64,000 bases of DNA from a virus. The first letter of the stretch is position 1. The number at the start of each line of letters is the position of its first letter. Shown piece by piece: positions 2,755-58,960 of the stretch. The stretch lies in UHGV virus genome UHGV-0141727; one strand, written 5' to 3'. Both the position numbers and the translations under genes were made by a program. The notes under the pieces are model-generated. The model had not been told where the DNA came from. It did not search any database and worked only from the letters and a program-made list of their open reading frames with translations.

Positions 2755-2787
2755 TGATTAGAAACATCAATTTAATTTTCTAACACA
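2755..2787. promoter_or_regulatory. operator-like inverted repeat ATTAGAAA-N12-TTTCTAAC upstream of immunity-like module 1
   Basis: member of recurring TGTTAGAAAA/TTTTCTAACA motif family seen at 7 sites. Confidence 0.4.
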
Positions 2788-2842
2788 CAATTACGAGCGA
2801 TGATTTTTCCGCCGCACGGTTATTGTACAGTCAATCGCAACA

Positions 2843-3802
2843 TCATCCCCGAAAGCCCTCCGGAATTGACCAGTCTTCCCGGTCAAATTCAGACCGATAG
2901 CCACGCTGTTTCATCTGGTCAAATGCTTCATTGATGGTTGCACATCCCTGGGAACCAGAATAATCCATAGAGAAATCCAGGGCGCTGGATCGTTTGGGCT
3001 TATTCACCGTGGTAGCACTACGTATCCATGCAAATTTTTTTGCCAGTTTTTCAGCGGTACGATACAGAGCCTGCCGTTTTGCGTACCCCTCGTCTGAACG
3101 ACGCTTTGCAGCTCTCGCTTTTGCCGCCGCCAAACAGTGGTTGGTATGTTCTTCCCTGATTACTGTTTTTTTATCCAGCAAGCCATTATCCGCTTGAGAA
3201 CTATCTGCTGGTGAAGCCTTTGGCTGAACCGCGCATGATCTTTCTCTTCTTTTGGCTATAGAGTGACTCTTATTTTCTATTGGCTGTTCATTTTGAACAT
3301 GGGGGGACTTGTTCAATTTGAACAGGGGGTGCCCAGTTTCAAAAAAATAACGAACCTTTGAAATCAACTGCTTAACCAGTTTTGTGGCGTTGGCAAATTT
3401 GATGCCCTGCTTACTCCCTATCTCCATTGCTACATGAATGAAGTGGAGAAATTGTGTTGTAAACCGGTACACGTTACACACCTGAGCATTGTTATTCGCT
3501 ACCTGATGCTGCTTAACAAGCATTCCGCACTTCGTCGCTTCGGTAAATGCCCGGCGCACAGTAGAAATACTGCGTCCTGTAATCTCGGACATATCAGCAT
3601 ATGAGCGACGGATCATGTATTCATCGGTAGCTCCTGCCAGGTTGGCGAACTCGGCAATAATGGCGCTATGTGAAGGGGAAAGAAAACCGCTATGACGAGC
3701 AAAAAAACTCAACTGATGACCTTTGATTTTTTTGTGGTATTCAGTGTTGTTTTTATACTCAGAAGTGTTGAAAGTTACTGGAACTGAATTTAAAATACTC
3801 AT
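2843..3802 (-). CDS. winged-HTH DNA-binding protein (possible replication or regulatory protein)
   Basis: ORF; HTH-like segment SEITGRSISTVRRAFTEATKCGMLV; 9-bp inverted repeat GTATAAATC/GATTTATAC in its promoter region 3828-3856. Confidence 0.35.
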   Translation of the reverse strand: MSILNSVPVTFNTSEYKNNTEYHKKIKGHQLSFFARHSGFLSPSHSAIIAEFANLAGATDEYMIRRSYADMSEITGRSISTVRRAFTEATKCGMLVKQHQVANNNAQVCNVYRFTTQFLHFIHVAMEIGSKQGIKFANATKLVKQLISKVRYFFETGHPLFKLNKSPHVQNEQPIENKSHSIAKRRERSCAVQPKASPADSSQADNGLLDKKTVIREEHTNHCLAAAKARAAKRRSDEGYAKRQALYRTAEKLAKKFAWIRSATTVNKPKRSSALDFSMDYSGSQGCATINEAFDQMKQRGYRSEFDREDWSIPEGFRG

Positions 3803-3864
3803 CAGATAGTTCCGTGAAAAATCTATCTACCGTATAAATCTATGCCAGTGGATTTATACACCCA

Positions 3865-3896
3865 AAAGCCGCTACTCAGCGGCTTTTGCTTTTTTG
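3865..3896 (+). terminator. intrinsic terminator-like hairpin AAAGCCGCT/AGCGGCTTT with T-tract on plus strand
   Basis: stem-loop followed by TTGCTTTTTTGG; no annotated plus-strand gene upstream. Confidence 0.35.
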
Positions 3897-4000
3897 GCAG
3901 TCGCTACCGGAGCAGTGACCGCGATCCTACTCGATCACGTGCCGTCGGATCAACAGTGTATAAAAACACACTGTGTTAGAAAATTAAGCTAGCTTTTAGC

Positions 4001-4999
4001 TCACATCCTCTTAGACACAAAGATCAGCGGAGTCACCGTCTTGTTCTCTTTCACCGGTATTTCTTGTTGTTTATTGGCTGATATTGGCAGACCATAAGTG
4101 GCATTAGCCCCTAGGGATTCAAGCATCGCTGCGACAATGCGTGCATCATCCTCTGACTGCATACGGCAGAGCGCCCGGCGCTGTTCTGCGCTGATAAAAA
4201 CAGGCATTTCCTGGATAGCATCACGCAAAATACGGCGGCATTTCTTCGCGTTCTCCCCCTGGCTTTCCATCATCGCGGCCTGGTCGCGTAGTTTGTCGCG
4301 AAGCTGCATATTTTCCACTTCAAGATGTATCAGTTCCGATTCCAGAGCTTCACGCTGTGCTGATTCAATCATTGCTTGTTGACTTTGCATTTGTGCAAAG
4401 TGATGAACAATATCTGTAGCCTGATTGTCAGTGAAACCTTGATCCATCAGCGACGTGTGCATAACAGCTTCACGCTCTTCAACGGACTCCATCATCGGTA
4501 TCTGTTTATCGAGGCTGATATAGTTCGGCACGGTAACGTAATCAAATCCATGAAAGGAGTTTACTATTGACACGAAAGAATCAGGTCCAATAGTCGCCCA
4601 TGACCAACCGCCAGCATTTGAGTTGATCAATCCTTGAACAATATGCCCTGTATATGAATCAAGAATTTCTTGGGTGTGCGTAATGACACCATTATCGTCA
4701 ATAGAAATATCAACTGTTCTGTTAGATGGCACATTTTCCAGAAGAAGAGGCTTACCATCCATCATAACAACGCAAACCTCTGGCAAATCTAGTGATTTAG
4801 TTTTGTTGTAATACATCGAGCGGCGACCATGACCGTAATATCCAAATAGCTCACCAAGAGCCATGCGCTCTTTAACTAGCGGTGATGTTATGGTTTTTCG
4901 CACAGCCTCAATAATGTATTTTCGGTTGTTCTGCGGTGTATGTTTGCGGATTTTCTCTACCAGGGAGAAGCGATCCGTAACGGTATTCAGTGATTGCAT
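4001..4999 (-). CDS. head morphogenesis protein (prohead protease/scaffold-like by size and position)
   Basis: ORF 332 aa immediately downstream of portal-size gene; coiled-coil C-terminal half. Confidence 0.3.
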   Translation of the reverse strand: MQSLNTVTDRFSLVEKIRKHTPQNNRKYIIEAVRKTITSPLVKERMALGELFGYYGHGRRSMYYNKTKSLDLPEVCVVMMDGKPLLLENVPSNRTVDISIDDNGVITHTQEILDSYTGHIVQGLINSNAGGWSWATIGPDSFVSIVNSFHGFDYVTVPNYISLDKQIPMMESVEEREAVMHTSLMDQGFTDNQATDIVHHFAQMQSQQAMIESAQREALESELIHLEVENMQLRDKLRDQAAMMESQGENAKKCRRILRDAIQEMPVFISAEQRRALCRMQSEDDARIVAAMLESLGANATYGLPISANKQQEIPVKENKTVTPLIFVSKRM

Positions 5000-5012
5000 T
5001 ATTTCCCTCCGG

Positions 5013-9536: not shown

Positions 9537-11482
9537 ACGCCCCCTTGTTGTATCTCTGCCAAAATGTTGATCAGGTGATCGGCTGCCGCACCAACAAGTG
9601 ACTCGTTCTCATCATATCGACCTGCGTTGATAAGAACATTAGCTGCCTCCTGAATGCGATCAAACTCCGCTCTAATCACCGTCAAATCACGGGACGTAAA
9701 CTGCAACGGCACGGATTTCAGATATTCCAGCGCACTGTCCGCCTCCTGATCAGCCTCACTAACGACTGGCCCATCTGAACCTGTATCAGACTCTTGGGGG
9801 GATTCAGGTTCAGACTCAGGTACTGGTACTGGTACTGCTTCCGGTGCCTGATCTAATGTCTGTTCAGCTTCGACTACTTCTGATTGATTCTGAAGCGCGT
9901 CATAGATATCCATTATAAAAAGGTTCTCCCCATCTCCAAGTGGATAAGCGACGTTAGGAAATGCTTTGCGGAAGAGGATTTTTATCTGCGCCTTAAAGGT
10001 TTTCAAGTCGCTTCCAAACAGATCAACATAGCCATCAATATGGTTCGACATACTGGACGCAACCAATTCGCCTGCAATCTCTTTCAATTCATCGTCACCA
10101 GGGAGATATAGCAACTCGTACTGACTGACTTCTTCGTCTGTCAGTTTGCGGTCATACGTAATGATTCCGTGACGAGCATATTCGTAATACGGATCAGCCT
10201 GATCAGGACGGTCAAGTACAGCTTTATTTCCTTCAGGAACCGCACCAACACCCGCCGGGCGAGATTGGAGCGCATAGCGATATTTACCAACCTCCAGGGG
10301 ATCAGGATGTGATTCTGGTTGTGGCTCCTGTTCAGGCTGCGGCTGATCAGTTGGCTCAGGCTGGCCCGGCAACACATCCACTTTGTATTGATCAGCATTA
10401 TGTTCACGATAGGCTTTAAGTAATTTGGTTGCAGCGTCCGCTGAACTCCCACCTTTAACAGCACTGACATCAATACTGAAATTGCCTTCTGGTGCCTCAA
10501 TCGTGACAAAGCTATCACTGCCTGACGTGACATACTTAACTACAGCACCATTATCCAGCGTTGTTTGGCCTTCTGTAGCAAGATTATGTTTTATGTGTCG
10601 CAGTTGATCATTGAAGGCACGCTCTTTAGTTCCTTGGCTCTTAGCTGACAATAAATTATCGCGTTTAGCCTGCAATTCCGCGTTAAGGGCTTTTTGTGCG
10701 TCTAATTTATTCTGCATATCATTGAGTGTTGAGCGTTTCTCTGCCAGCCCCCGCTGTGCGTCTTCAACCTGCTCAATCAGCACAGAACGTTCTTCTGCCA
10801 GCTTGTCGGCTTCATTGAGATACCCCTCAATATCAGCCTTCATTTTGTCTTGGCGCTCCTTTGCTTTTTTGAATTTTGCACTATTACGCTCAATGAGGTT
10901 AGAAAGCGCCTGGCATACCTGGCTCAGAGATACATCACGCCCACCGATTGGCGCAACAACATGCGTAACGTTTCTTTTGTTAAGAAGAAACTGAAACGCA
11001 ACCAGCTCGTCATCCCCTTTAATTCTTGTGCCGTCTGCGGTTGGAGAATGGAAAATTATGCTTGTCGTTTGCCCATCGGTTAGAGGTATTTGTGCTGTTA
11101 CAACAGGGATATTAGCAACCCGGCGCACGCGCCCAATGATTGCCCCACCGATACTATTACGTCCGTCTTCATATTCACCTGCCTCATCCGTACCCGCAGC
11201 AATGTCAGTGCCATTCAGGCCGCGATTAAGCGCCCGGACAAATGCTCGCATTGTTTGCGCTAACCGCAATTTTGTTGTGGTTATAGCTTCGAACATTGCC
11301 TCATTGGTAGTTACCAAAATTTCGTTGCCCATATAGGCCAGCTCGATATCTTCCAGCGTCGCAGGCTCGATAAGTAAATCATCCTCGGTGATATCTTCCG
11401 CCACCCAACGATTAGGCGTATATCCAGTGAGCGTATCTGCAAAAGTGGACTGGATATTTATTCGAATAGGTTTCTTTATCAT
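9530..11482 (-). CDS. large internal head/antirestriction-type protein, P1 DarA-like by size and synteny
   Basis: ORF 650 aa with central coiled coil and acidic Pro/Glu-rich linkers; follows LydA/LydB/Hdf-like genes as in the P1 darA operon. Confidence 0.35.
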   Translation of the reverse strand: MIKKPIRINIQSTFADTLTGYTPNRWVAEDITEDDLLIEPATLEDIELAYMGNEILVTTNEAMFEAITTTKLRLAQTMRAFVRALNRGLNGTDIAAGTDEAGEYEDGRNSIGGAIIGRVRRVANIPVVTAQIPLTDGQTTSIIFHSPTADGTRIKGDDELVAFQFLLNKRNVTHVVAPIGGRDVSLSQVCQALSNLIERNSAKFKKAKERQDKMKADIEGYLNEADKLAEERSVLIEQVEDAQRGLAEKRSTLNDMQNKLDAQKALNAELQAKRDNLLSAKSQGTKERAFNDQLRHIKHNLATEGQTTLDNGAVVKYVTSGSDSFVTIEAPEGNFSIDVSAVKGGSSADAATKLLKAYREHNADQYKVDVLPGQPEPTDQPQPEQEPQPESHPDPLEVGKYRYALQSRPAGVGAVPEGNKAVLDRPDQADPYYEYARHGIITYDRKLTDEEVSQYELLYLPGDDELKEIAGELVASSMSNHIDGYVDLFGSDLKTFKAQIKILFRKAFPNVAYPLGDGENLFIMDIYDALQNQSEVVEAEQTLDQAPEAVPVPVPESEPESPQESDTGSDGPVVSEADQEADSALEYLKSVPLQFTSRDLTVIRAEFDRIQEAANVLINAGRYDENESLVGAAADHLINILAEIQQGGVW

Positions 11483-12940: not shown

Positions 12941-13156
12941 ATGCATATGATGGCCCGGTGGTCCGTAAACCTCGTCACTCAGAGCGTGGAGGATGCCAAA
13001 TTCGCGTATCAACAAAATGGTCCAAACACGGCTTTAAAGAGAAATACGCTTGAATGCGCAAGATGTGAGCTGATTCTTGAGGACAAAATGATGACATGTG
13101 AGTCTTCACAAGCGTCATTCAGTGAATATAATACCGACTCTCTCAGATACTACTAA
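12941..13156 (+). CDS. small hypothetical protein
   Basis: ORF followed by strong terminator 13172-13207. Confidence 0.2.
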   Translation: MHMMARWSVNLVTQSVEDAKFAYQQNGPNTALKRNTLECARCELILEDKMMTCESSQASFSEYNTDSLRYY

Positions 13157-34477: not shown

Positions 34478-34488
34478 GCAGAGGACAC

Positions 34489-37917: not shown

Positions 37918-37927
37918 TGAGGTTGCC

Positions 37928-38293: not shown

Positions 38294-38329
38294 CCAATCT
38301 ACATCTTCAAAGGCTGCAATTTGCAGCCT

Positions 38330-39500: not shown

Positions 39501-39506
39501 CGCCGG

Positions 39507-39610: not shown

Positions 39611-39635
39611 ATAAAAGCCCCATATGGGGCTTTTC

Positions 39636-40478: not shown

Positions 40479-40545
40479 ATGGCTGATAGTGGCTTCCGCC
40501 GCAGGACGATGATTGTCGCTATAAGAAATAAATTTAGCACCAATA

Positions 40546-42115: not shown

Positions 42116-42123
42116 ATTTCGTA

Positions 42124-42165
42124 AAACTGTGTTAGAAAATAAAACTCAATTATCTAACACAGTTT
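42124..42165. promoter_or_regulatory. perfect 13-bp inverted repeat AAACTGTGTTAGA/TCTAACACAGTTT operator-like site upstream of rdgC operon
   Basis: member of TGTTAGAA motif family. Confidence 0.45.
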
Positions 42166-42174
42166 TGTATTTTT

Positions 42175-42852
42175 CTATCCCTTCACAAAGGAGAAATTGC
42201 TCGCTGTTGCTTTTAGCGCGCCACCAGCGTTCAGGGCTATATCACCATCAGCGGCGACGGTTACATTGCTGCCTTTTACATTAACGTCTCCATCGGAGGA
42301 TACATTGGTTTTGCTGCTTGATTTGACGTTAACCTCACCTCCAGCATTAAGCACTATATTCGCCGGGCCGATTATGTAAATCTGGCCGGATTCGTTCATC
42401 CCTATCCTTGATCCTGCGGCGGTGTTTGCTATTTCATAGCCACCGCCAGCCGTTCTGACCTCAAGGATATTGTTTCGGTGAATAACAAAATCTTCAGTCG
42501 CCGAAAACTGGGGGCGGGCAGGAGCACCATCAACTTCTTCTGGCGACCATCCGTTTCCTTGTCCGGAGGCTTCCGGAGGCACATTTGGTACGCCTCCTGG
42601 GGCATCCTGCGCCGCGCCAACGATTAAAGGTCGGCGCGTGTCTATCCTGCCTTTAGCATCCAGATAAGGAAATTCGACCCAGACTAAATCGCCGCTGACT
42701 GTAGGTGTAAAGGCGTTACCGATAGGCATTTGATACTCTGCCCATGGGAGGTCTTCATCCGGTACACCGTTCCAGTCAGGCAGTATGCGGACCTGCGCTC
42801 GCATAAGTCCGGCAGGGTGTTTGGTCCCTACGATTTGCGCTCTGCGTTTCAC
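42175..42852 (-). CDS. baseplate central spike protein (gpV/gp5-like)
   Basis: 225-aa ORF with Gly-rich beta-helix-like C-terminus. Confidence 0.5.
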   Translation of the reverse strand: MKRRAQIVGTKHPAGLMRAQVRILPDWNGVPDEDLPWAEYQMPIGNAFTPTVSGDLVWVEFPYLDAKGRIDTRRPLIVGAAQDAPGGVPNVPPEASGQGNGWSPEEVDGAPARPQFSATEDFVIHRNNILEVRTAGGGYEIANTAAGSRIGMNESGQIYIIGPANIVLNAGGEVNVKSSSKTNVSSDGDVNVKGSNVTVAADGDIALNAGGALKATASNFSFVKG

Positions 42853-43829
42853 TGGTTGGGTACTCCTAATATCATTCGTGTTGTATAGCCGATCCGGTCT
42901 TCAAAATGGGCTACGTTTTTCACCAGCAGCTTACGAGGCAACGATTCGTCCAGCTTATTTTCCTGGTCGTAACGATACACGAGGATCTCAATAACCATTC
43001 CCGGCGTGATGTCGGGATTACCCGCGACCTCAATATCCATTTTGGGTACGAGCGACAATTGCATATTGCGCAGAGTTTCCATATCCGGATCGGATATATA
43101 GCGTATTGGAAGTGAGCTATCGCCATATTCGACATAGCCTTCAGTCATTGAATAGCCGGTAAATCGATACTGAGTATTTGCCGTAACGGCATACTCTTGC
43201 TGTATAAGCCTCATTTTTGAAATCGTGTATTCCGCCCTGGGGTTGTTCCCTTCATAGGTGAATGATGGTTTGGCTTTCATAAGGTCAGCTAATGTATAAA
43301 AGTTAAACTGACCACGGCAGGCCCAGCATAAAGCGCCTTTGTCGCGGGCCATTTCAGATAGCATTTTGGAGGGTTTTTCCCCGGCGGAAAGATGGTACGT
43401 ACAGCTTCGTTTCAATGCGCTGGAGGCGATTTTCAGTGTACCGGTATACGTCTTGAAGATGGTATCAGGCGTTTTATTTGTATGCAGGTTAGCCCGTAGA
43501 GCGGGGATCTTAAATATCCGAACGTCTTCACTGACTGCAATGACCGTAATGACATCACCAGCCAGCACCGCAGATGTTACGAAAAAAGTTGTTTTAAACG
43601 TACCTGAATTGCCTTGTGGATCACCCATCTCTGCAACCAGTGCTGCGCCGTATTTTGTTTTCCAGTCATCAATTATGGTGCCGGTAATGTCGTGAATTTC
43701 CAGTTTCAGCAATGGTGCTCGCAGGTTTGCCTTTTCCACATATACGGCAGTGAATATCCACTCCCTGGGCACTTTGTTTCCGTTGATGGTAATGGACTGT
43801 AGAAAGTATTGCTGTAGCTCCTGGGACAT
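42849..43829 (-). CDS. baseplate hub-like protein
   Basis: 326-aa ORF immediately upstream of spike gene. Confidence 0.3.
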   Translation of the reverse strand: MSQELQQYFLQSITINGNKVPREWIFTAVYVEKANLRAPLLKLEIHDITGTIIDDWKTKYGAALVAEMGDPQGNSGTFKTTFFVTSAVLAGDVITVIAVSEDVRIFKIPALRANLHTNKTPDTIFKTYTGTLKIASSALKRSCTYHLSAGEKPSKMLSEMARDKGALCWACRGQFNFYTLADLMKAKPSFTYEGNNPRAEYTISKMRLIQQEYAVTANTQYRFTGYSMTEGYVEYGDSSLPIRYISDPDMETLRNMQLSLVPKMDIEVAGNPDITPGMVIEILVYRYDQENKLDESLPRKLLVKNVAHFEDRIGYTTRMILGVPNQ

Positions 43830-43832
43830 GGC

Positions 43833-44600
43833 TTACCCCATTCTCAGAGAGGTTTCAGTAATAATTCGTTTCGCGTCCAGCTCCCAGGCGGTGATCACGT
43901 CTGCTATAACACTAATTGCCGTTTGTGCAGCATAAATACGCTCTTCCCCAATTGGGGCTGAAACATCAGTAAAACTGATGTCTTTAGCATCCTGAATCGC
44001 GCAAATTAGCGGGACGGGTACTCGTACCAGCGGGGTTGTTGCTTCAAACTGCGTTCCTGCCATCAAGCGAAGACGTGCTCCTAGCGAATTACACATCAGA
44101 CTCATGGTCGCCTTATCCGTCGCCATTAACGTAACGTCATACGTCAGATTTGCCTGGGTGTATTCCAGGGCTACTAAAGGCATACCGCTGCCAGGTTCGC
44201 AGAAGTGATCACAGCTTTTGCGGTCTATCTGCTGGTCATTGTTGATATAGCTGATATCCATTGAGCGCGAGATATTAATCAGAGGGAGCGCATCGCGATT
44301 AATGTTCGGATTCTCTGGCTTTCTCCCTTGCCCTGCATTAGCACGGCGAACCGCTTTAAGGAACTCGACCGCGTTATCAAAACGGGCAACATAAACACGC
44401 TCCGCTGGTGGGCGACTCAGGAATGATGCAAAGCGCCTTTCTTCTTTTGCTGGTTCCACCAGCGTTACGTCAGAAAAAATGTCGCTGATTAGCGTAGCAA
44501 AAGCGTTATCCACTCTTTCCAGACCAGTTGTCTGGAATTTTCCAGTACGCGTTGTCTGCCACTCGCCAATGCGGGACAGTAGAGTTTTGTTAGGTGTCAT
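43833..44600 (-). CDS. hypothetical virion protein
   Basis: ORF 255 aa. Confidence 0.3.
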   Translation of the reverse strand: MTPNKTLLSRIGEWQTTRTGKFQTTGLERVDNAFATLISDIFSDVTLVEPAKEERRFASFLSRPPAERVYVARFDNAVEFLKAVRRANAGQGRKPENPNINRDALPLINISRSMDISYINNDQQIDRKSCDHFCEPGSGMPLVALEYTQANLTYDVTLMATDKATMSLMCNSLGARLRLMAGTQFEATTPLVRVPVPLICAIQDAKDISFTDVSAPIGEERIYAAQTAISVIADVITAWELDAKRIITETSLRMG

Positions 44601-45403
44601 TCGATCACTCCGTTTTGAGTGGTATCAAAGTTCCTGGCCGGGATGCAGTAATAAAGGGAACCAACGTGTTGTGTTCCGTAGCTGAAGATTCGATGCACGT
44701 ACCACCAGCGGCGGGCGAGGCCATTCGCCATTTCTTCGTTCCATTCCAGGATTGAACCAACAGGTACGTTGTTTGCAGCAATACGCAGGATTAGCACTTC
44801 ATCAGCAAGACCATCCTGTTCTCCATCGGCATCAATGGCATGAAACGAATCCCTTCCGTCCGGGTTATCTAGGACGTATACGATTTCCGGTTCCAGATAG
44901 GTAAGCTCACGCTGGTTGTTGTCCAGTTGCGTGAAAGACTCTTCACCTGTTTCATCGTTTACGACGCCATAGGTGCCATCAGCCGGGCGATATAAAAGCG
45001 CCTCGAATGCGTCAGGGCTTGATTCAATAATAAGCATCCAATCGGCGCGGATCTGGTCGTTGAACGCTTTGTGTCCGTTATATCGGGTTTTAAGCTGCTG
45101 GTTTGGTTCTCTGTTTGCGAGCGATGCCGGTAGGGGAGCGATGTCAGGTTCAATCACTTCCGTAACAGAGTCACCAGCATTATCAGGCCAATTATCATGG
45201 CGGCTATCTGCTTCGGTGGCAGCGCGTTCTTCCAGAATACTGAATGGCCCTGTACTGACCTTCCCATTTTCCGTTGTGCTTCCTTCATTCGCTTCAACCG
45301 TCGTTGTCTCTTCTCTCTGCGTGCTGTCATGTTCTGTTCCCTTTCTCATCAGGCTTGCATCATCAGCAAGCCATTCATCAAAACGGCCCATAAGCGTCCT
45401 CAA
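44597..45403 (-). CDS. hypothetical acidic protein
   Basis: ORF 268 aa. Confidence 0.3.
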   Translation of the reverse strand: MRTLMGRFDEWLADDASLMRKGTEHDSTQREETTTVEANEGSTTENGKVSTGPFSILEERAATEADSRHDNWPDNAGDSVTEVIEPDIAPLPASLANREPNQQLKTRYNGHKAFNDQIRADWMLIIESSPDAFEALLYRPADGTYGVVNDETGEESFTQLDNNQRELTYLEPEIVYVLDNPDGRDSFHAIDADGEQDGLADEVLILRIAANNVPVGSILEWNEEMANGLARRWWYVHRIFSYGTQHVGSLYYCIPARNFDTTQNGVIE

Positions 45404-45540
45404 AGGTCGATTTATCAGGTATAGAGGGGAATTGTCTGGAGATTGTGATTTGTTTGTCGCCAGGTAATTTCTTTAGATTGATGAGGCGAAATCTATCGGA
45501 GGTGCGGTATCATTGTTCGGTCAGAACTTAAGGAGAAACA

Positions 45541-46080
45541 GTGAGTCAGGAAGTTGAAAAGTGGCGAGCATTTGAACACCCTGATGGTGTTATTCGTGAT
45601 TTGTCATTTCTTGACGCTCATCAGGCTGTGTTTGTTCAGCAACAAGAAGGAAAGCAACCGATAGAGTATCGCTTTTGGGTTACGTACTCTTTTCACTGCT
45701 TCACAAAAGACTATGCACACCAGACTGAGGAAGAGAAACTGGCGTTAATGTACCACGCCCCTAAAGAGTCTCGTCCATTTTGTGAGCGTCGCTATAATCT
45801 TGCCAAACTTCACTTAAAAGAGGCAATTCTGTCATTGTCGGAAGGTAAGGTGATCCATGCCGGATACGGAAGCTATGCCGTTATTGAGGTAAATATTGGG
45901 GAGGGTAACAAGGAGTATTATTTTGTTGCGTTTAAGGCTTTCAGGGAAAAGAAAAAGTTGCGGTTACACATCACTAGCGCCTACCCGGTATCAGAAAAAC
46001 CAAATGGCAGGTCAGTGAAGTTTTTCGCAATCGCATACAATCTGTTAAGGAACAAACCGCTTCCTAAGCCACCAAAATAA
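45541..46080 (+). CDS. orphan opposite-strand protein of unknown function
   Basis: 179-aa ORF, GTG start with AAGGAG RBS, own terminator. Confidence 0.4.
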   Translation: MSQEVEKWRAFEHPDGVIRDLSFLDAHQAVFVQQQEGKQPIEYRFWVTYSFHCFTKDYAHQTEEEKLALMYHAPKESRPFCERRYNLAKLHLKEAILSLSEGKVIHAGYGSYAVIEVNIGEGNKEYYFVAFKAFREKKKLRLHITSAYPVSEKPNGRSVKFFAIAYNLLRNKPLPKPPK

Positions 46081-46082
46081 CA

Positions 46083-46104
46083 AAGCCCACCTTAAGGTGG
46101 GCTT
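46083..46104. terminator. hairpin AAGCCCACC/GGTGGGCTT directly after 45541..46080
   Basis: 9-bp stem; T-tract on minus side. Confidence 0.45.
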
Positions 46105-46305
46105 CGCCAGAAATTATTTTCTGGTATTCAGAACGCCATTACCGGACTTTGCCTTGACCAAGTATCACAACTGGTTTGACCTGTTATGATAGCTGGTTGC
46201 GGGATGTCTGAATTTCTTCAGTCTGCTGCATCCTCGAAGGTTTGGTTCAACATGTACCATTCCTTCACCGTCATAATAGTGTACTATTCACGTCCTTGCA
46301 AACAC

Positions 46306-47511
46306 TTATACATTTTTTACGTTGTTCTTCACATACGCCATGAACATCTTTTCGGCTTGTGCTGGTGGTGTTCCTGCCATAACAAGCGCATCAATGAACG
46401 CCTGCTTCTTCAGTGCGAACTGATCAGCAAGGCGTTGCTGAAGTTCCTTGTTTTTCTGCTTCTCCCGTTGCAAAGCTGCTTCTTTTGCCGCTGCCCGTTT
46501 TTTCTGTGCGTCGGATAACTTTCTGGCCCTGGTCAGTTGGTCACGCAGCTTGTCGATCTTACCGTTGTCCTTTGCCAGTTTTGAGCTTAAAGCGGCCTGG
46601 CGTTTCTGATAGAGCTTCCATTCACGTTTAGCTGCCTCAACATTCGTTTTGCTGCTACGGTTTCGATTGAACGCCTTCTCGTCTTCTTTTGTGAAGTGTT
46701 TTGTCGTGCGGCGGCGATCGTCACCAAAGGCAACTTGCTTTGCAGCTTTTTGCAGGGCGCGAGCAATACTCATCTGCCAACTGGCAGACTGTAGTCGTGT
46801 CATTGAGTGGATCACATGTTTACAGGCGACGCCTTGCAGCTTAGGGTTGCGAACTTTTGGATAGGCGTATTCTTTTGGCGGGGCCAGGGCAAAGTTACCC
46901 GCAGTGGCGATGTAGCGATACCAGTATTGATGGCGACCGCAGTCACAGTCGAAAGACACTCGCCCGGCACACAGTGATTTTGTGACTTTCAGGGCTGATT
47001 TATCGTCTTCTGCGATGTCATCGACCATCTGATCCCATTCTTCAAAACGTACCCGGACAATGTGGTGCTGGTGAACGGATATATCGGACGCTTCCACGCG
47101 GATATTAATCACATTGTGACGAAGAGATACGGGCGTAGCTCTTTTGATACCAGAACCGTCGTCTACGGCGTTATTTGCTCGCTTAATATCGATAGCCTGG
47201 CTGGACGCTACCAGTTGTGCGTATGTGATGCCAGCCGTCTTGCTGTCATATTTTTCGCGTGCTTTGCTTCGCAGCTTTTCGAAGCCTTTCAGATCGTCAC
47301 GCGTAAAGAACGTGCCGCCTTTCTTTTTCCCCAGCTTAAGAATGTCTTCGGCTGATTTATTCCTAAGCCTGCCCGGCGTGAGTGTCCTGTGCGCCTGGCG
47401 GCGTTTGCGGTTTTGCTCTTTCCTGATGAGTTCAAATACGCGTGTGAAATCCTTAGAGGACAGACCGTTAGTGATATATCGCCCGTCCTGATTTTTCAGG
47501 AAGTCAGGCAT
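46306..47511 (-). CDS. SWIM-type zinc-finger protein with basic coiled-coil C-terminus
   Basis: 401-aa ORF; CxC...CxH pattern in FDCDCGRHQYW...ACKHV. Confidence 0.35.
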   Translation of the reverse strand: MPDFLKNQDGRYITNGLSSKDFTRVFELIRKEQNRKRRQAHRTLTPGRLRNKSAEDILKLGKKKGGTFFTRDDLKGFEKLRSKAREKYDSKTAGITYAQLVASSQAIDIKRANNAVDDGSGIKRATPVSLRHNVINIRVEASDISVHQHHIVRVRFEEWDQMVDDIAEDDKSALKVTKSLCAGRVSFDCDCGRHQYWYRYIATAGNFALAPPKEYAYPKVRNPKLQGVACKHVIHSMTRLQSASWQMSIARALQKAAKQVAFGDDRRRTTKHFTKEDEKAFNRNRSSKTNVEAAKREWKLYQKRQAALSSKLAKDNGKIDKLRDQLTRARKLSDAQKKRAAAKEAALQREKQKNKELQQRLADQFALKKQAFIDALVMAGTPPAQAEKMFMAYVKNNVKNV

Positions 47512-47833
47512 TTTCTATCTCCGGTGCCGAGCCAGCGTAATCGCGAATCTTGTTTCTTAGCCATGCTGCGTCAGGAAGAGTTAACGTTGTCCCTACCGGC
47601 ATTTCTTCCATTTCTGACTCATGGCCCACCAGCACGCGAAATACCCAGCGCAAATCAGCATTGCCATAGGCGCGATAGGCCGCCAGGTCTGAGCGATAAA
47701 CCTCATCAATTTTTATCGTGTACTGGAAATTATCGGAGTGATACTCCGATACCCGCTTGATCATCTCCTGATGGAATAGTGCGCGCAGCACATCGTCTTC
47801 AATGCATCGATCGTCGAGCCTGCTGTAACTCAT
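47504..47833 (-). CDS. hypothetical protein
   Basis: ORF 109 aa. Confidence 0.3.
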   Translation of the reverse strand: MSYSRLDDRCIEDDVLRALFHQEMIKRVSEYHSDNFQYTIKIDEVYRSDLAAYRAYGNADLRWVFRVLVGHESEMEEMPVGTTLTLPDAAWLRNKIRDYAGSAPEIENA

Positions 47834-47890
47834 AACAGTTCCTCACAGTCATAACCTGTGGGGAACTGTATGCAGGGTGTGAAATGCGGG

Positions 47891-47913
47891 AAAGCAGCGT
47901 CACCTGGCCTGGT
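47891..47913 (-). terminator. hairpin GCGTCACC/GGTGACGC downstream of higA-like gene
   Basis: 8-bp inverted repeat. Confidence 0.3.
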
Positions 47914-47925
47914 GACGCTGTAAAA

Positions 47926-48207
47926 TTATGCGTGGGAAAATAATGGACGGATGTTTGGGCGAGCGGTTTGCGAAGCAACCCAAAGCTCATACTGGGATTG
48001 CATACCGGTCCACATTTCGGCACTGGTTCCAAGAGCGGACTCCAGACGAAGTGCCATATCAGCAGAAATACCTGTTTTTTCGTTCAGAATTCGGGAAAGT
48101 GCCGTGCGAGTAATGCCTAATGCAGCAGCTGCGTCTGTGACTGACATGTCTCCCAAATATTCACGAAGAACCGCGCCTGGATGCGCGGGATTATGCATAC
48201 GACTCAT
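47926..48207 (-). CDS. HigA/VapI-like HTH antitoxin
   Basis: 93-aa [14 protein letters not shown]...DMALRL. Confidence 0.55.
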
Positions 48208-48503
48208 ATGTGGAAAGCAACCCGTTTACCGGTTGGCAATTCAACGTCCAGACTCAACTTTCCACCCATAGCCTCAACGTAACGTTTAAGCGTTGCTACT
48301 TTCAAGTCATTGCCTCGTTGTTCAAGTTTTGTGATGGCTGGTTGACTAATTCCCATCGCATCGGCAACTGTTTTTTGTGATAACTGAAGCTCCTCTCTCA
48401 ACATCTGCAATCCGACTTCCAGAATCATTTCATCAGCCTGCTCTTTGATACGAGCTTGGCTTTCAGGGGATTGCGCAGCAATAACTTCTCTTAGAGTTCT
48501 CAT
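48204..48503 (-). CDS. XRE-type HTH antitoxin-like protein
   Basis: 99-aa ORF with HTH, immediately downstream of RelE/HigB-like gene. Confidence 0.5.
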
Positions 48504-48850
48504 TATTTTTTCTCAAGTTCTGCAAGATGGTTGGAAAATTCGTCGTCTGCAATCCGTATCATTCTTTCGTAGAACTTTTTATCGTTACTCTTATCTCCGG
48601 CGCACAGGATTATGGCTTGCCTTACCGGATCAAATGCGAAGAATGCTCTGATAGGGCGACCAGCGTACTGAATCCGTAACTCCTTCATGTTTTTATGGCG
48701 TGAGCCTTTAACTGTGTCGGCATATGGCCTTGATAATGAAGGGCCATATGTTTCCAGATTGATCAGGTCAACCAGGATTTTTTCTTTTAATGCAGGTTCC
48801 TGTTCCTGGAACCATTCATCAAAAATTTTTCCAAAATAAATTTGCCACAT
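48503..48850 (-). CDS. RelE/HigB-like addiction-module toxin
   Basis: 115-aa ORF; ELRI...GDKS motif pattern; precedes two HTH genes. Confidence 0.5.
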   Translation of the reverse strand: MWQIYFGKIFDEWFQEQEPALKEKILVDLINLETYGPSLSRPYADTVKGSRHKNMKELRIQYAGRPIRAFFAFDPVRQAIILCAGDKSNDKKFYERMIRIADDEFSNHLAELEKK

Positions 48851-48885
48851 AGTTATTCAAAATCCTTTTTAATAAACTACATGTT

Positions 48886-48922
48886 ATAAACTACAGGTTA
48901 TATCATATAACCTGTAGTTTAT
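48886..48922. promoter_or_regulatory. 37-bp perfect palindrome in promoter region of toxin-antitoxin operon (candidate operator)
   Basis: ATAAACTACAGGTTATAT C ATATAACCTGTAGTTTAT. Confidence 0.5.
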
Positions 48923-48955
48923 ATTTTCAAGGCCATTTTTTATTCGATTTAGCAT

Positions 48956-49609
48956 TTAAAGTATCACGGTATCCTCATCAACTTCTTTCCCTGCCAGTGA
49001 CTTTGGCTGGGAGGCTGCTGCTTTAACCTTCTCATGCCCAATAATGGACAGGAACGAGGCCATTATCCCTGCTTTGTTTTCTTTCTCTACCGCTCCTGTC
49101 ATTTGTTTCAGGTAATCCGCGCTGGCAACATTGTGGTATACCGTTGCATAGCAGCACAGAATCATCAGGATGTGCTCTGGTCGGATATCTTGCCAGTTAA
49201 CTCGATAAACCTCTTCACCGTTGCCGTTGTATTCGGTATCGACGATAGAGTCGGGGATCTCAAATGCCCCTTTGTTCTTGTCAGGCAGGGATAGCAGCCT
49301 TTGTAGTTTCAGCTCCCGGTATCTTTCCATGCCGACAATGATCGCCGCTCTGCCGTCGGCGTGCCGTGTTTTTAATGTTACCTGACTGGCACCTGTACCG
49401 GCTGAAATGGTTGGCGTGATTTCGTCAACCAGCACCTTAAATTCACTTTTACGCAGCTCGGCAATTGCTGGTGGAATTTTTCGTTTTTGTTCAATAGCAG
49501 ATGCAGGGAGCGGCTTTACTTTGTCAATTACAAGCGCGCCGTCTTTCAGGACTGCCGTAGCCATCAGCGGCTTGTTAGTCGAAAGGCTGAATATTGCGAT
49601 CTTTTGCAT
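48956..49609 (-). CDS. hypothetical protein
   Basis: ORF 217 aa. Confidence 0.3.
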   Translation of the reverse strand: MQKIAIFSLSTNKPLMATAVLKDGALVIDKVKPLPASAIEQKRKIPPAIAELRKSEFKVLVDEITPTISAGTGASQVTLKTRHADGRAAIIVGMERYRELKLQRLLSLPDKNKGAFEIPDSIVDTEYNGNGEEVYRVNWQDIRPEHILMILCCYATVYHNVASADYLKQMTGAVEKENKAGIMASFLSIIGHEKVKAAASQPKSLAGKEVDEDTVIL

Positions 49610-49635
49610 GGCTTTTACTCCACGATAGCAGGCAC

Positions 49636-49659
49636 AAAAAAAGGCCGCACATGGCGGCC
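49636..49659 (-). terminator. hairpin GGCCGC/GCGGCC followed by T7 on minus strand
   Basis: stem-loop plus T-tract about 30 nt upstream of the 48956..49609 start. Confidence 0.4.
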
Positions 49660-49889
49660 TGCTTTGGCGTTATGACTCCCTACCGCGCATCGGCTGAAAG
49701 TTAGTCGTCAAAAGAACCTTCAACGGGAGCCGTTTGCGTAATGGATTTTGTCCAGATTGTGATTTCCAGAATAGTGTCAACAATTTTTTTGAATTTTTTA
49801 TTCGCTCTGAATTTGGCCTAGGTCATTTTGGCGTAGATGTTTGCTTTTGTAACATAAAGCTTCAGTTTGTTTACATGAAGGATGGTTTT

Positions 49890-50498
49890 GTGAAGTTAAG
49901 GGTTTTGGGAGCAGTGCTCGCGGTTATATTGGGGGGAGTTTCTCTTAATGCTGCCTATGCAGGCGCGTTACCTGCAAAGTATGAGGCTGGGCTGAAGGTG
50001 TTACGAAACGCCAAAACAAACTATACGCCTGATGAAGTTTCAAACTATTGCCAGAAAGAAAATATCCCACTGAAACCTGTAGAGCCATTCTTTAAAAGCA
50101 ACATAGAGTTCTGTGTATTTGCGTATGCAGCAGATGAAACAGGAAAGGCCATACAAAAGACAGGGTATTCCACCAAAGACACAATGTCAGTGTTAAGTAA
50201 CGGCGTGTTGCAGTTTGAGCTTTATCGTCAGCAAGGAATGGGAGATCTATTGCAGCCTTTGTATGGTCTAGCATTGGTGCCGGAAGGTCAGCAGTTTCTG
50301 ATCAAAAAAGGCCTCATGAGGCAGGAAGATGTAGCTGGTTTCGATGCCATCGTTGCCTATGAAAAACAACTCAAGGAACAGCGCAATAAAAAACCATCTG
50401 CCTCATGCGTGCAAAGCAAAACAGCAGAATACAGCGCAGTGGCTGGGCCTTTAGCCCCACAAATGGCAGAGCAATGGTGTAAACAATACGGGCAATAA
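49890..50498 (+). CDS. secreted protein of unknown function
   Basis: ORF 49734..50498; GTG 49890 with AAGGA RBS yields signal peptide MKLRVLGAVLAVILGGVSLNAAYA. Confidence 0.4.
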   Translation: MKLRVLGAVLAVILGGVSLNAAYAGALPAKYEAGLKVLRNAKTNYTPDEVSNYCQKENIPLKPVEPFFKSNIEFCVFAYAADETGKAIQKTGYSTKDTMSVLSNGVLQFELYRQQGMGDLLQPLYGLALVPEGQQFLIKKGLMRQEDVAGFDAIVAYEKQLKEQRNKKPSASCVQSKTAEYSAVAGPLAPQMAEQWCKQYGQ

Positions 50499-52459: not shown

Positions 52460-52620
52460 ACTAAGTTAAGGAGCTACCGCGTGAGGTTCCAATCTCAATG
52501 GCGGTAGCACTGACTGGGTTGGAACTACCGGCGTCAAAGGGAACCGGCCTGCCTTTCGGCAGCCCAGCCAGCACTACCATTGATCTCTGAGCTAAACGCT
52601 ACGTATGGCTGTGCGATGGC
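52460..52620 (-). ncRNA. candidate c4-like antisense/leader RNA region upstream of icd (inference only)
   Basis: ORF-free structured region between a terminator and icd; position analogous to P1 c4. Confidence 0.2.
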
Positions 52621-52624: not shown

Positions 52625-52651
52625 CACAAAAAAAGACGCTTTCGGCGTCTG
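52625..52651 (-). terminator. intrinsic terminator AGACGC/GCGTCT plus T7 on minus strand
   Basis: hairpin immediately followed by TTTTTTTGTG. Confidence 0.55.
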
Positions 52652-52755
52652 TGTCGCCTTTGACATTATCCGGGGTTCCAATCCCGGCACCCGTTTTTCT
52701 AAGGTGCCGTAGAAATATACCCCACGATAATGCCAGGGCGCAACTGTGTGTTTTC

Positions 52756-52923: not shown

Positions 52924-53254
52924 TTTGACACCCCCAGCGCGAGTAAAGAATGCAGATTATCGCGTGAGTGGCGGACAACGAGTGATGGGAAAAGACAGTA
53001 GCTGTTCATAGTGTAGTGACTCCTTGCTTTTGGAGCCGCCATCGACTGTTCCACGGTCTGGTGGCGGCGCAATAAAGGTTGGAACACCGTGAGTCAACGG
53101 GGGCTTTTCAGCCACCTATATTGCACCGCCATTGGTATGGCGGCGGCAATCATACGAAAAACCAAACGGTTTGTCTCAAAAAGTTGACCGGTGTACCAAT
53201 CGGTTGTGAATGTACAACGGTGAATTTCACAATTCAACTTAAAATGTTAGAAAA

Positions 53255-53830
53255 CTAATTTATTAATTCAGTCACCATCTGATACAACGTCATTTCATCG
53301 GCATTGTGCCGCCTGAAATCTGCTTTGCCGCCTATTTTTCCATCAGCATGAACAGGGACCAACCAGGGGTATTGCTCGCGTATCTCTGCTGGCGCTGCGT
53401 GTTGATGGTGCCATTTACACAAAGGGAGAACGTATTTATGCGCGTTCTCTGCCGTTCTCCCGAAGATGTGGTGCAGGGATACCACAGGGCTATGCTGTCC
53501 GTGCATATGGCAGGCAATGCAGGGGAGAGCACCGATGGCAGTTTGTATCCGGCGCTCATCTGCTGTGAGCGTTCTGCCTTTCAGGCCACGTGACGTGCGC
53601 GTTTTTTTGACTGGAGCAGAAGCGGCCTTCTCTTTTCTTCGCTGTTCATATTGCTTCGCTTTTTCAATTTTCTTTTGCCGATATTCAGGCGATGCAGCCT
53701 TTTCTCGCGCACGCTGCTGCTGGCGTTGAGCTTGCTGAAGACGCTTTGCCCTTTGTTCCTCCCGCCATTTCGGATCAGCCAGTTTTTTCAGGGCTTTTTG
53801 CGTCTGTTTCTCCCAATAGCTTTGCTTCAT
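53255..53830 (-). CDS. Ref-like HNH-type nuclease (P1 recombination enhancement function-like)
   Basis: ORF 53255..53872; Lys/Arg/Gln-rich N-terminus, C-terminal Cys/His cluster CIACHMHG...HHIFG...PLCKWHH. Confidence 0.45.
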   Translation of the reverse strand: MKQSYWEKQTQKALKKLADPKWREEQRAKRLQQAQRQQQRAREKAASPEYRQKKIEKAKQYEQRRKEKAASAPVKKTRTSRGLKGRTLTADERRIQTAIGALPCIACHMHGQHSPVVSLHHIFGRTAENAHKYVLPLCKWHHQHAAPAEIREQYPWLVPVHADGKIGGKADFRRHNADEMTLYQMVTELIN

Positions 53831-53872: not shown

Positions 53873-53911
53873 ATGTGTTAGAAAATCAAAATTGATTTTC
53901 TAACACAAAAT
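53873..53911. promoter_or_regulatory. near-perfect 34-bp palindrome TGTGTTAGAAAATCAA AA TTGATTTTCTAACACA in divergent promoter region
   Basis: strongest member of the recurring operator-like motif family. Confidence 0.5.
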
Positions 53912-56704: not shown

Positions 56705-57411
56705 AATTTTCCAAATTTTCTGAGTTGGTGAATCGTATTTTGTCCAACAACCACAGCCATCGTCGCGATATGGATGTAACAATCGTTATTCATTCGCCTG
56801 GCAGCATTGGTTCAACACCTTCAGTTGAGGTTCAGTCAATTCACGCTGGTTTTGATTGGGATTCCGGGAAAGTGCTGATTTTCCCAGCACAGCCACTGAC
56901 CGCGCTAACACCAGAACAGATTACTGATATCACGGATAGTGTGCGCAAAGGTCAGTCTTGGCACGCATATCAGGAATACAAGAAGCATAAAGAGCAGTTG
57001 GAAAAATTGTCGATTGAACTTGATGCTGCAAGACGGCGCATTACAGAACTGGAGAGCGAACGCGCGGTGCTGGCGGCGGAGAATGCGGATCTGAAGTCTG
57101 TGCACCCTCAACCATTCGGAGCTGAGATGATGAAGGCTCTTGATGCGTATGAGAAGCATCAGGATGAAGTGCCAGAGACTGGAATGCTCAATGCATTTTT
57201 CATCTTGCGCGACAGTATCCGTGTTGACACCCCAGCCACCGATGCTTTCCTGGCTGAAGTACGTGCGCAGGGCGTGGATATGGCTCGTAACGCGATGATT
57301 GATTTTGTCGATGGTGAAGTTGGTCCAAACAAGAATGTTCCGGGGCTGATTAGAGGCGCAGAGATATGCGTAAGTATTGCTGAACAGCTTCGCAAAGGAG
57401 GCAGCCAGTGA
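56701..57411 (+). CDS. Ea22-like protein
   Basis: ORF 56650..57411; ATG 56701; [12 protein letters not shown] motif. Confidence 0.5.
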
Positions 57412-57683
57412 ATATCGACACGACAATAACGATCGATACGCTCCTAAATTCCGGTCTGGCACTTCTCGGTTGGCTTTACATCATGTCCCGTACATGGCGA
57501 TGGCTGGGTTCCATTTTCCTGAAACAGTGGAAAAAACGGCGCAAACATGAACTACGCCAGAAGGCATTAGAAGCGTTCTATGACGCATTTGAACTTGGCA
57601 GCATTGAACCAGGCACAACAGCGAGGATAGCGACAAAAGGCGACCTGATGATAGTGATGTTCAGACAGGAGAAAACAAAATGA
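57408..57683 (+). CDS. small membrane protein
   Basis: GTG start with AAAGGAGG RBS; one TM segment. Confidence 0.35.
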   Translation: MNIDTTITIDTLLNSGLALLGWLYIMSRTWRWLGSIFLKQWKKRRKHELRQKALEAFYDAFELGSIEPGTTARIATKGDLMIVMFRQEKTK

Positions 57684-57904
57684 CAGAACAGACGATGACA
57701 AATCGCGAACTTGTTGATGCCGCGATTGAACTTGCTGGCGATTTTTATTCCATGATGGGTTACGAACATCGTCCTGGTTTTAAGTATTGGGAGTCACCGC
57801 ATCCGCAAGAACAACAGGTGTTTGAAATGGCCTGCCGTGCTTTTGAGGTTATTCGCGGTTCTGATGTGATGGAGGCCGTTGCCGACTTGGAGGATGAAGA
57901 GTGA
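57680..57904 (+). CDS. hypothetical protein
   Basis: ORF 74 aa. Confidence 0.3.
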   Translation: MTEQTMTNRELVDAAIELAGDFYSMMGYEHRPGFKYWESPHPQEQQVFEMACRAFEVIRGSDVMEAVADLEDEE

Positions 57905-58212
57905 GCATCATTGTAGAAATGCCGGTAGAACGTGATGAATATGGCTGCTGGACACATCCGGAGTATGAAAAGTTTTGCGCAGGTCGTGAATATATATCCA
58001 CTGAGGAATTTGACGCCTGGATGAAGGAAAATAATCTTCAGTGGACTATTCGCAGTATGGATGAAGATGATTTTAATCTGGACGCAGATGGCCCCGATAT
58101 TGCCGCCTGGGAACCAGAGCGACCAGAGGGCGAAGGCTGGTTTGTTGGCTCTATTCATGACACTGAAGATGGTCCGGTTTGTATCTGGCTGCGGGAGAAG
58201 GTTGCCGCATGA
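57901..58212 (+). CDS. hypothetical acidic protein
   Basis: ORF 103 aa. Confidence 0.3.
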
Positions 58213-58895
58213 CCCAGGTGCTGCATGAAGTGAATTTATATAGCCGTATTGATGGTTCAGGCTACAGAAACATATGGGTTGTTGGTGATTTGCACGGTTG
58301 CTACACCCTACTTATGAATGAACTCCATCGTGTGGATTTTGACCCTACACAGGATTTACTGATATCGGTTGGCGACCTTATCGATCGCGGCACCGAAAAT
58401 GTTGAATGCCTGGAGCTATTGCAGATGCCCTGGTTTCGGTCGGTTATGGGAAACCACGAGCGATTAATGATCGATGCGTTAAGTCCCGCAGGCAACGTGA
58501 ATAACTGGCTAATGAATGGTGGTCAATGGTTCTTCATGCTGGACGCTGATCGGGAAATATTAGCCAGGGCGCTGGTGGAGCTGGTAAGACGTTTGCCCTA
58601 TATCATTGAGCTGAACACCGGGCATGAAACTATCGTTATAGCCCATGCCGACTATCCTGATAACGAATACCAGTTTGGTAAACCTGTTAGCGATCTCAAT
58701 GTTACCTAGCGGCGTGAGCGATTTTATGACGCGGTTGATGGTGTTGGTGGAATAATCACTGGTGCAGATAGCTTTATTTTCGGGCATACGCCAGTAAGCA
58801 GCCCGAAATCTTTCTGGAACCAGCACTACATAGACACTGGTGCGGTTTTTTGCGGAAATCTGACGCTAAAGCAGGTGAAGGTAGGGCAGTCGTAA
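58209..58895 (+). pseudogene. lambda-type Ser/Thr protein phosphatase interrupted by in-frame amber codon at 58707-58709
   Basis: GDLHG, GDLIDRG, GNHE motifs before the TAG; GHTP and IDTGAVF motifs continue in frame after it. Confidence 0.6.
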
Positions 58896-58925
58896 TCCTG
58901 AACACATCGTTTATGCACTCAAAAT

Positions 58926-58960
58926 GATGTTAGAATATTGATTTTAATTTTCTAACAGAT
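58926..58960. promoter_or_regulatory. operator-like inverted repeat TGTTAGAA-N14-TTCTAACA upstream of 59000 gene
   Basis: member of recurring motif family. Confidence 0.4.

Follow-up and report, generated by a model that had tools for sequence, protein, structure and literature searches.

Asymmetric half-sites dispersed through a D6-like P1-family phage-plasmid are probably the operators of a C1-type prophage repressor

A repeated motif between the genes of a D6-like element

The stretch analyzed here, referred to below as the window, comprises 64 kb of the virus genome UHGV-0141727. Judged by homology, the window is D6-like P1-family phage-plasmid DNA: it aligns with Escherichia phage D6 (MF356679) at 80-87% nucleotide identity over D6 coordinates ~19.3-83.9 kb, and the E. 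coli plasmid pEC361_3 is 98.9% identical to it over the 20-kb segment at 30001-50000. D6 proteins mapped onto the window supplied its gene map. The genes of interest here are the lytic replication gene repL, ref, the rdgC-methylase operon, the orf88-to-ppp operon, pdcB, orf52 and two immunity-I-like modules, in each of which a motif site is followed by a C4 antisense RNA, icd and a Rha-family antirepressor gene, as in P1 immunity I. An earlier sequence-only reading had described the repeated word ahead of these genes as a dispersed operator network of half-sites before early and accessory operons, and that description holds, the sites occupying the same neighborhoods as the annotated C1 operators of P1.

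The TGTTAGAAAA repeat (complement TTTTCTAACA) is a real, non-random motif. Exact matches number 8 in the window, at 3974, 42130, 53245 and 53876 on the plus strand and at 2776, 34060, 53896 and 58948 on the minus strand, compared to 0.16 expected from dinucleotide shuffles, and none of 100 shuffles reached 8. With one mismatch allowed there were 17 matches against 5.4 expected, and in an unbiased survey of k-mers the same family supplied the top-ranked over-represented 11- and 12-mers relative to a third-order Markov expectation. Alignment of the window with two relatives indicated that conservation is wider than the 10-mer, extending over T-R-TGTTAGAAAA-Y-Y-A-A with another T ~3 bases on. We represented the motif as a 20-nucleotide position weight matrix (consensus TTGTGTTAGAAAATTAATTT; background mean, -31 bits) and scored as half-sites all matches of at least 14 bits, which yielded 11 half-sites at 7 loci, compared to 0.23 in Markov simulations. 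Both the exact and the matrix-based counts, which the sequence-only reading had left to be checked, are thus far above expectation. The sites that it had reported were placed correctly, but the half-site at 34003-34022 was not among them. The sites and their matrix scores are as follows.

2753-2772, plus strand: degenerate partner arm of the half-site at 2769-2788, -2.5 bits
2769-2788, minus strand: strong half-site GTGTGTTAGAAAATTAAATT, 28.5 bits, upstream of immunity-I-like module A
3971-3990, plus strand: single half-site with no partner arm, 25.6 bits, between pro and repL
34003-34022, plus strand: extra half-site TAGCATTAGAAAAATAATTT, 19.9 bits, in the gap between the divergent major capsid gene and orf52
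34035-34054, plus strand: degenerate partner arm of the half-site at 34053-34072, 4.3 bits, offset 18
34053-34072, minus strand: strong half-site, 27.1 bits, covering the predicted orf52 promoter at its -10 and start region
42127-42162: putative bivalent inverted operator upstream of rdgC, with arms 42127-42146 (plus, 23.7 bits) and 42143-42162 (minus, 22.2 bits)
49838-49857, minus strand: possible weak site, uncertain, 11.2 bits, also in pEC361_3, in the mat/simB-like gap
53242-53261, plus strand: single half-site with no partner, 26.2 bits, overlapping the ref stop codon
53873-53908: putative perfect bivalent operator GTGTTAGAAAATCAAAATTGATTTTCTAACAC, with arms 53873-53892 (plus, 26.9 bits) and 53889-53908 (minus, 28.2 bits)
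58925-58960: putative bivalent operator upstream of pdcB, with arms 58925-58944 (plus, 18.8 bits) and 58941-58960 (minus, 25.4 bits)

All 7 loci are intergenic. Nine of the 11 half-sites fall in the 9.8% of the window that lies outside a crude map of open reading frames, and the remaining 2 are likewise intergenic once the D6-homology gene map is used. The intergenic enrichment extends to a complete genome: in D6, which is fully annotated, 16 of 17 half-sites lie inside the 10.2% of the genome that is non-coding (binomial P = 2e-15). The complete relative pEC361_3 bears about 20 half-sites at 14 loci.

Single half-sites and inverted pairs of fixed geometry

The three clean palindromes in the window (42130/42150, 53876/53896 and 58928/58948) share a start-to-start distance of 20 bp, corresponding to 10 bp between the 10-mers, and one common offset was observed for 11 of 11 strong inverted pairs from the window, D6 and pEC361_3. 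The spacing of 2 to 16 bp that had been proposed for the arms is therefore incorrect. Of the partner arms that had been proposed, those at 2755 and 34038 are degenerate (-2.5 and 4.3 bits) and shifted by 0-2 bp, whereas those at 3990-4005 and 53258-53277 score as background, making the sites at 3974 and 53245 single half-sites. Such half-sites without a partner arm (3971-3990 and 53242-53261) are conserved across relatives, which shows that the half-site unit is asymmetric. As judged from these alignments, the unit is an asymmetric half-site of ~17-20 bp, which occurs either alone or together with an inverted copy at a constant spacing. Conservation of the single sites likewise suggests that one half-site would be a sufficient unit, as it is for the monomeric C1 of P1. 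The sequence-only reading had also drawn this parallel to P1 C1 operators; the conserved single sites support it, although the argument from variable spacing on which it was based was wrong.

Conservation of the sites and their relationship to predicted promoters

When orthologous gaps of the window, D6 and the Enterobacter plasmid pJBIWA008_2 were aligned, the strong arm stood out as 10-12 consecutive invariant positions, while flanks and spacers had diverged. The half-site at 2769-2788 is followed in module A by a promoter, the c4-a1b1 targets, a C4 RNA, icd and a Rha/Roi antirepressor gene; its D6 orthologue lies at 21260-21279 and its P1 counterpart is Oc4/Op51. The site at 3971-3990 had been ascribed to an immunity-like module, but instead serves repL, which it precedes (D6 orthologue, 22464-22483; P1 counterpart, OrepL/Op53). 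In the capsid/orf52 gap, the half-site at 34003-34022 is identical in pEC361_3 (23362-23381) but scores only 9.0 bits in D6, and the arm at 34053-34072 is kept in both D6 and the Enterobacter plasmid amid diverged flanks. The inverted pair at 42127-42162 fills a 59-bp gap upstream of rdgC/hrdC, a cytosine methylase gene and dmt, is conserved in D6 (64113/64129) and Enterobacter (16846), and corresponds to Odmt/Op68, which in P1 lies upstream of uhr-hrdC-dmt. The site at 53242-53261 precedes orf86, orf85, an isrK-like RNA, a second C4 RNA, icd and a second Rha antirepressor gene (module B); it is conserved in D6 (75977) and in Enterobacter (25847), where it also overlaps the ref stop codon, as does Omat/Op2b in P1.

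The perfect palindrome at 53873-53908 lies between the divergent ref gene and the orf88-to-ppp operon, and its P1 counterparts are Oref/Op2a and Oppp/Op83. The sequence of its right arm is unchanged in both D6 and Enterobacter, and the palindrome recurs at the same locus in 7 D6-like IMG/VR contigs; two further IMG/VR matches to the palindrome pattern were unrelated sequences and were discarded. The last pair, at 58925-58960, is followed by pdcB (DUF968), which starts at 59000. The uncertain site at 49838-49857 has a D6 orthologue (72195-72214) with a score of 16.0 bits, and 42 bp separate this orthologue from simB downstream of it.

Consensus matches predict sigma-70-like promoter elements that are directed toward the downstream gene and overlap the sites at 5 of the 7 loci. 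A strict scan placed promoters at 2 of the 7 loci, and a relaxed scan (at least 8/12 matches) added more, which we regard as weak evidence. The predicted elements are as follows.

immunity-I-like module A: -35 TTGATG at 2770-2765, -10 TATGAT at 2748-2743
repL: -35 TTGATC at 3953, -10 TAGGAT at 3929
orf52: -35 TTAACA at 34026, 17-bp spacer, -10 TTTAAT at 34049, 10/12 matches
rdgC: -35 TAGAAA at 42177, -10 GATAAT at 42154, the -10 lying inside the right arm
orf88: -35 TTGATT at 53892, 17-bp spacer, -10 GATACT at 53915, the right arm lying over the -35 and spacer
pdcB: -35 TTGATT at 58938, 17-bp spacer, -10 TATTTT at 58961, the strong arm filling the spacer

Upstream of pdcB the arm occupies the spacer between -35 and -10 in all three lineages (window, D6 and Enterobacter). 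The relationship between site and promoter is less clear for module B (53242-53261). Two other features were seen near the predicted repL promoter: three GATC sites (3923, 3933 and 3948), resembling the cluster of Dam sites annotated at P1 PkilA, and a strong, symmetric terminator-like hairpin with an 11-bp stem (3863-3888) between that promoter and the repL start.

Scanning the window revealed no motif before the lysis, portal, tail, sheath and baseplate operons; among the morphogenesis regions, only the shared capsid/orf52 gap holds motif sites. The RNA elements of the two immunity-I-like modules were located as follows.

2475-2560, minus strand: C4 RNA of module A (Rfam RF01695)
2628-2680, minus strand: c4-a1b1 target element of module A
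52497-52584, minus strand: C4 RNA of module B (Rfam RF01695)
52629-52707, minus strand: isrK-like RNA of module B (RF01394)

The two C4 RNAs matched RF01695 with 71.7 and 77.1 bits, respectively.

Comparison with the mapped C1 operators of P1

The GenBank record of P1 annotates the experimentally defined C1 operators Oref, Omat, Oc4, OrepL, Odmt, Oppp, OpmgRa/OpmgRb, Olpa and Oc1a-Oc1e. Oref lies upstream of ref, Omat over the ref stop codon, Oc4 before c4-icd-ant, OrepL before kilA-repL, Odmt before uhr-hrdC-dmt, and Oc1a-Oc1e around c1, coi and cre. In the D6 lineage a TGTTAGAAAA-type site is present in each of the annotated neighborhoods, five of which are within the window and the rest in its complete relatives. 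Outside the part corresponding to the window, D6 bears sites before lpa (4629-4648), before pmgS (10315-10334) and just after the cre stop codon, upstream of orf117 (89945-89964). A further site precedes c1 in both D6 (196-215, 22 bp from the start) and pEC361_3 (58341-58360), occupying the interval 12-31 bp ahead of the start codon. The D6 GenBank record carries no operator features, and for the motif string or for C1 operators together with D6 we found nothing relevant in the searchable literature, although the D6 genome paper may already list D6 operators.

The likeness to the C1 network of P1/P7 (operators Op2, Op51, Op53, Op68, Op83, Op86, Op94, Op99 and others) therefore extends to several levels. 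In each case ~20 asymmetric copies of 17-20 bp are scattered over a phage-plasmid of ~90 kb; sites stand before c1, lpa, repL, c4-icd-ant, ref, hrdC-dmt and pmgS, as well as at the ref stop codon; single sites and inverted pairs are mixed and overlap sigma-70 promoters, which for the window are predicted ones; and a homologous repressor gene adjoins a cre/lox-type site. The word itself is different. P1 has 22 operators with the asymmetric 17-bp consensus ATTGCTCTAATAAATTT (PMC8546580), compared to TGTGTTAGAAAATTAA for the D6 type, and the P1/P7 consensus had no match in the window with up to 3 mismatches allowed, which bears out the earlier remark that the sequence is unlike the P1 operator. 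The D6-type system also differs in having extra sites upstream of orf52 and pdcB, and in the window it has two C4/antirepressor modules, with antirepressors of the Rha/Roi type, rather than the single module with Ant1/2 found in P1. Compared to P1 Obanab/Oc1ab, the arms of the D6-type pairs are ~10 bp wider apart (offset 16 for 20-mers versus 11 for 17-mers), though this 'one extra helical turn' holds only under a best register of the two operator models that is itself non-significant (p ~0.08). No homologue of Coi was found at the syntenic place in D6, where no open reading frame is annotated between the lox-like site and c1. By sequence, then, the architecture is the same as that of P1 ImmC, but the immunity type is not that of P1/P7.

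Two other known systems invite comparison. As with CI/Cro at lambda OL/OR, a prophage repressor would occlude early promoters; however, lambdoid sites are of the symmetric dimer type and form two clusters by the repressor gene, whereas the sites described here are asymmetric and genome-wide, and the D6-type C1 has no recognizable match to a helix-turn-helix family. The Lpa-dependent late promoters of P1, which combine a -22 inverted repeat and a -10 element, similarly place a short word before many operons, but these ACAAGTGACTT-like boxes precede morphogenesis and lysis operons, regions from which the D6-type motif is absent apart from the shared capsid/orf52 gap. A reading of the motif as a late-promoter (Lpa) box was rejected, since late operons are not where the sites stand and the window shows no enrichment of the -22 box of P1 type.

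The motif word changes with C1 lineage

D6 protein mapping detected no C1 homologue in the 64-kb window, in agreement with the sequence-only reading, which saw no obvious cognate repressor, presumably because c1 lies outside it. In D6, which is the closest sequenced phage and carries the same motif at orthologous loci, c1 is annotated as 'prophage repressor' at 227-1264. The homologue in pEC361_3 (58372-59409) encodes 345 amino acids; taken as a proxy for the sublineage of the window, this protein is 80% identical to D6 C1. In both relatives c1 adjoins a cre/lox-like site and lies ~20 kb past the window end. D6 C1 and P1 C1 are homologous (21% identity over 240 amino acids, E = 2e-8) and can be aligned across five lineages, with 15 residues invariant over the six C1 proteins of pEC361_3, D6, Enterobacter, Citrobacter, Pantoea and P1. 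With 344-371 amino acids, C1 of the D6-like, Citrobacter and Pantoea lineages is longer than P1 C1 (283 amino acids), which lacks their shared C-terminal extension of ~60-90 amino acids. A tblastn search with C1 identified 153 plasmid records, with alleles at 100, ~80, 66-68, 40 and ~30% identity.

D6, the window and the Enterobacter plasmid all use GTTAGAAAAT. In Enterobacter pJBIWA008_2, whose C1 is 40% identical, Y-GTTAGAAAAT occurs before rdgC, at the ref stop codon, before ref, pdcB and lpa, and around pmgS. In contrast, the Citrobacter plasmid NZ_CP099371, whose C1 is ~30% identical to the query and 23% identical to that of Enterobacter, had zero matches to the D6-type matrix. It has instead the word CCTTAGAATT, with 11 matches at up to one mismatch, 8 of them intergenic; these lie upstream of rdgC, ref (twice), lpa and repL and near cre (sites at 42745, 50513, 50584, 63000, 63180 and 76765). 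Pantoea pEuc3, with a C1 likewise ~30% identical to the query and 23% to that of Enterobacter, also had no D6-type match, and in it a word of the CCTTAGAATT type, CCTTAGAAT, lies upstream of c1 and lpa. Three words thus stand at the same gene positions, ATTGCTCTAATAAATTT in P1, GTTAGAAAAT in the D6 type and CCTTAGAATT in Citrobacter and Pantoea, and the change of word follows the divergence of C1. The Citrobacter plasmid also contains another dispersed 12-mer family (ACTCATATACTC/TATACTCATATA; 5-6 copies versus ~0.004 expected), which probably represents its iterons.

The motif as the probable operator set of a C1-type repressor

We consider it highly probable that the sites are operators for a C1-type prophage repressor of the element, the protein that provides the ImmC function in P1-family phage-plasmids. 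Under this model, C1 (345 amino acids in the closest relatives), encoded outside the window next to the cre/lox-like site, would act in trans. While the element persists as a plasmid prophage, C1 would be bound to half-sites, possibly as one monomer each, that overlap or abut the -35 and -10 elements of sigma-70 promoters, and by binding there it would shut off repL, both C4-icd-antirepressor modules, ref, the rdgC-methylase operon, the orf88-ppp operon, pdcB and orf52, as well as lpa, pmgS and c1 itself outside the window. With these early promoters occluded, the element would remain quiescent as a plasmid. The two C4/icd/antirepressor modules, which themselves stand behind such sites, could provide a route to de-repression, as in P1 immunity I. 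Because the operator sequence differs from that of P1/P7, the element should be heteroimmune to P1.

Several observations weigh against this model. The link between C1 and the operators is drawn from comparison, c1 is outside the window, and the repressor is taken from relatives, of which the closest are 96-99% identical. D6 C1 is only 21% identical to P1 C1, a Pfam search gave no domain for either of the C1 proteins submitted to it (pEC361_3 and P1), and the D6-type and P1 operator models are not significantly alike (best register TGTGTTAGAAAATT versus TGCTCTAATAAATT, p ~0.08). The motif is constant at 40% C1 identity and changed at ~30%, so that overall identity does not predict specificity. 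With respect to promoters, at repL 18 bp separate the site from the best predicted -35 downstream of it, so that the site does not cover the promoter and their relationship is uncertain, and the promoters predicted at two other loci score only 8/12 matches. Finally, D6 orf13, which is syntenic to lxc, had no BLASTP similarity to P1 Lxc (Bof); no remote-homology search was made.

Other DNA-binding proteins of the element were also considered. The window encodes two HTH_3 proteins (47926-48207 and 48204-48503, both minus strand) and two Rha-family proteins with winged-helix matches, and the binder could in principle be a small XRE/HigA-like helix-turn-helix protein, a Rha-family protein or some unrecognized regulator. 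The Enterobacter plasmid, however, has retained the network of sites although no gene for a Rha/Roi antirepressor is annotated beside its icd, which argues against the Rha proteins. HigA is ~30% identical between D6 and the XRE protein of the window, yet the motif is the same, while the plasmids of Enterobacter and Citrobacter have different motifs with HigA proteins that are 55% identical and C1 proteins that are 23% identical. The positions of the sites, moreover, mirror the mapped C1 operators of P1, including one directly upstream of c1. We therefore regard a different element-encoded binder as unlikely. Somewhat less likely again is a promoter element or the site of a host factor, such as a nucleoid protein or global regulator. 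Although the sites are AT-rich, are located in promoter regions and have TTGAT-like -35 sequences at the palindrome center, it is the arm that is conserved rather than this -35-like center, and late (morphogenesis) operons lack the motif, with P1-type Lpa boxes not being enriched. In addition, the word differs at the same gene positions among closely related enterobacterial hosts (GTTAGAAAAT, CCTTAGAATT and the P1 operator), a change not expected of a shared host factor.

A chance or non-functional repeat, either the remnant of a small mobile repeat or an effect of composition, has a negligible probability. The region is moderately AT-rich and the word A/T-heavy, but the counts (8 versus 0.16 and 11 versus 0.23 expected), the intergenic placement (P = 2e-15 in D6), the retention of orthologous sites across lineages with diverged flanks and the fixed geometry of inverted pairs all argue against it. 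A reading of the motif as plasmid iterons was also rejected, the motif being dispersed and often inverted, and the iterons being a separate word family (AATGTTGACTATRTGCGAT) at 25190-26480.

Taken together, the C1 operator model most likely describes an ordinary P1-style immunity circuit with a different operator word, that is, a heteroimmune member of a known network rather than a new type of system. A more far-reaching proposal, which we offer tentatively and think may well be wrong, is that the P1 superfamily has at least three mutually orthogonal C1/operator specificities that define immunity groups (P1 ATTGCTCTAATAAATTT, D6-type TGTTAGAAAAT and Citrobacter/Pantoea CCTTAGAATT), and that the long form of C1 binds cooperatively to inverted pairs whose constant spacing exceeds that of P1 by one helical turn, a mode unlike the monomeric one of P1.

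Other features of the window

Replication iterons (TTGACTATA), unrelated to the operator motif, formed the second most enriched word family in the window. They are ~19-21 bp long (AATGTTGACTATRTGCGAT and variants) and form direct and inverted arrays at 25190-26480, flanking a replication gene of the RepA/RepB family. Chi sites (GCTGGTGG) numbered 27 in 64 kb, compared to ~2 for a random 8-mer (for example at 17326, 18730, 22690, 22795 and 23395, minus strand). Strong enrichment of Chi was likewise seen in the Enterobacter, Citrobacter and Pantoea relatives (for example, 44 versus 4 expected in 37.6 kb of pEuc3). A full-length match to the sroH small RNA family (RF00372; 113 bits) lies at 46082-46267 on the minus strand, immediately downstream of the gene (45541-46080) for a 'stationary phase growth adaptation protein'; D6 lacks the accessory island to which they belong. 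A remnant of the Cin invertase gene at 13016-13090 retains ~25 amino acids (residues 11-35 of 190), and similarity to pEC361_3 ends at 12949, the tail-fiber region being different; the element has probably lost C-segment inversion.

Implications for P1-family phage-plasmids

Our understanding of P1-type immunity is unchanged by these findings, the kind of system being textbook. D6-like phage-plasmids nevertheless gain a concrete operator model, which can be used to annotate their early regulon. Such elements are frequently found in E. coli, Salmonella and Shigella, and the C1 family is present in 153 plasmid records. The operator model could be used to predict mutual immunity of co-resident P1-family elements, and C1/operator pairs could serve as natural orthogonal repressor/operator pairs.

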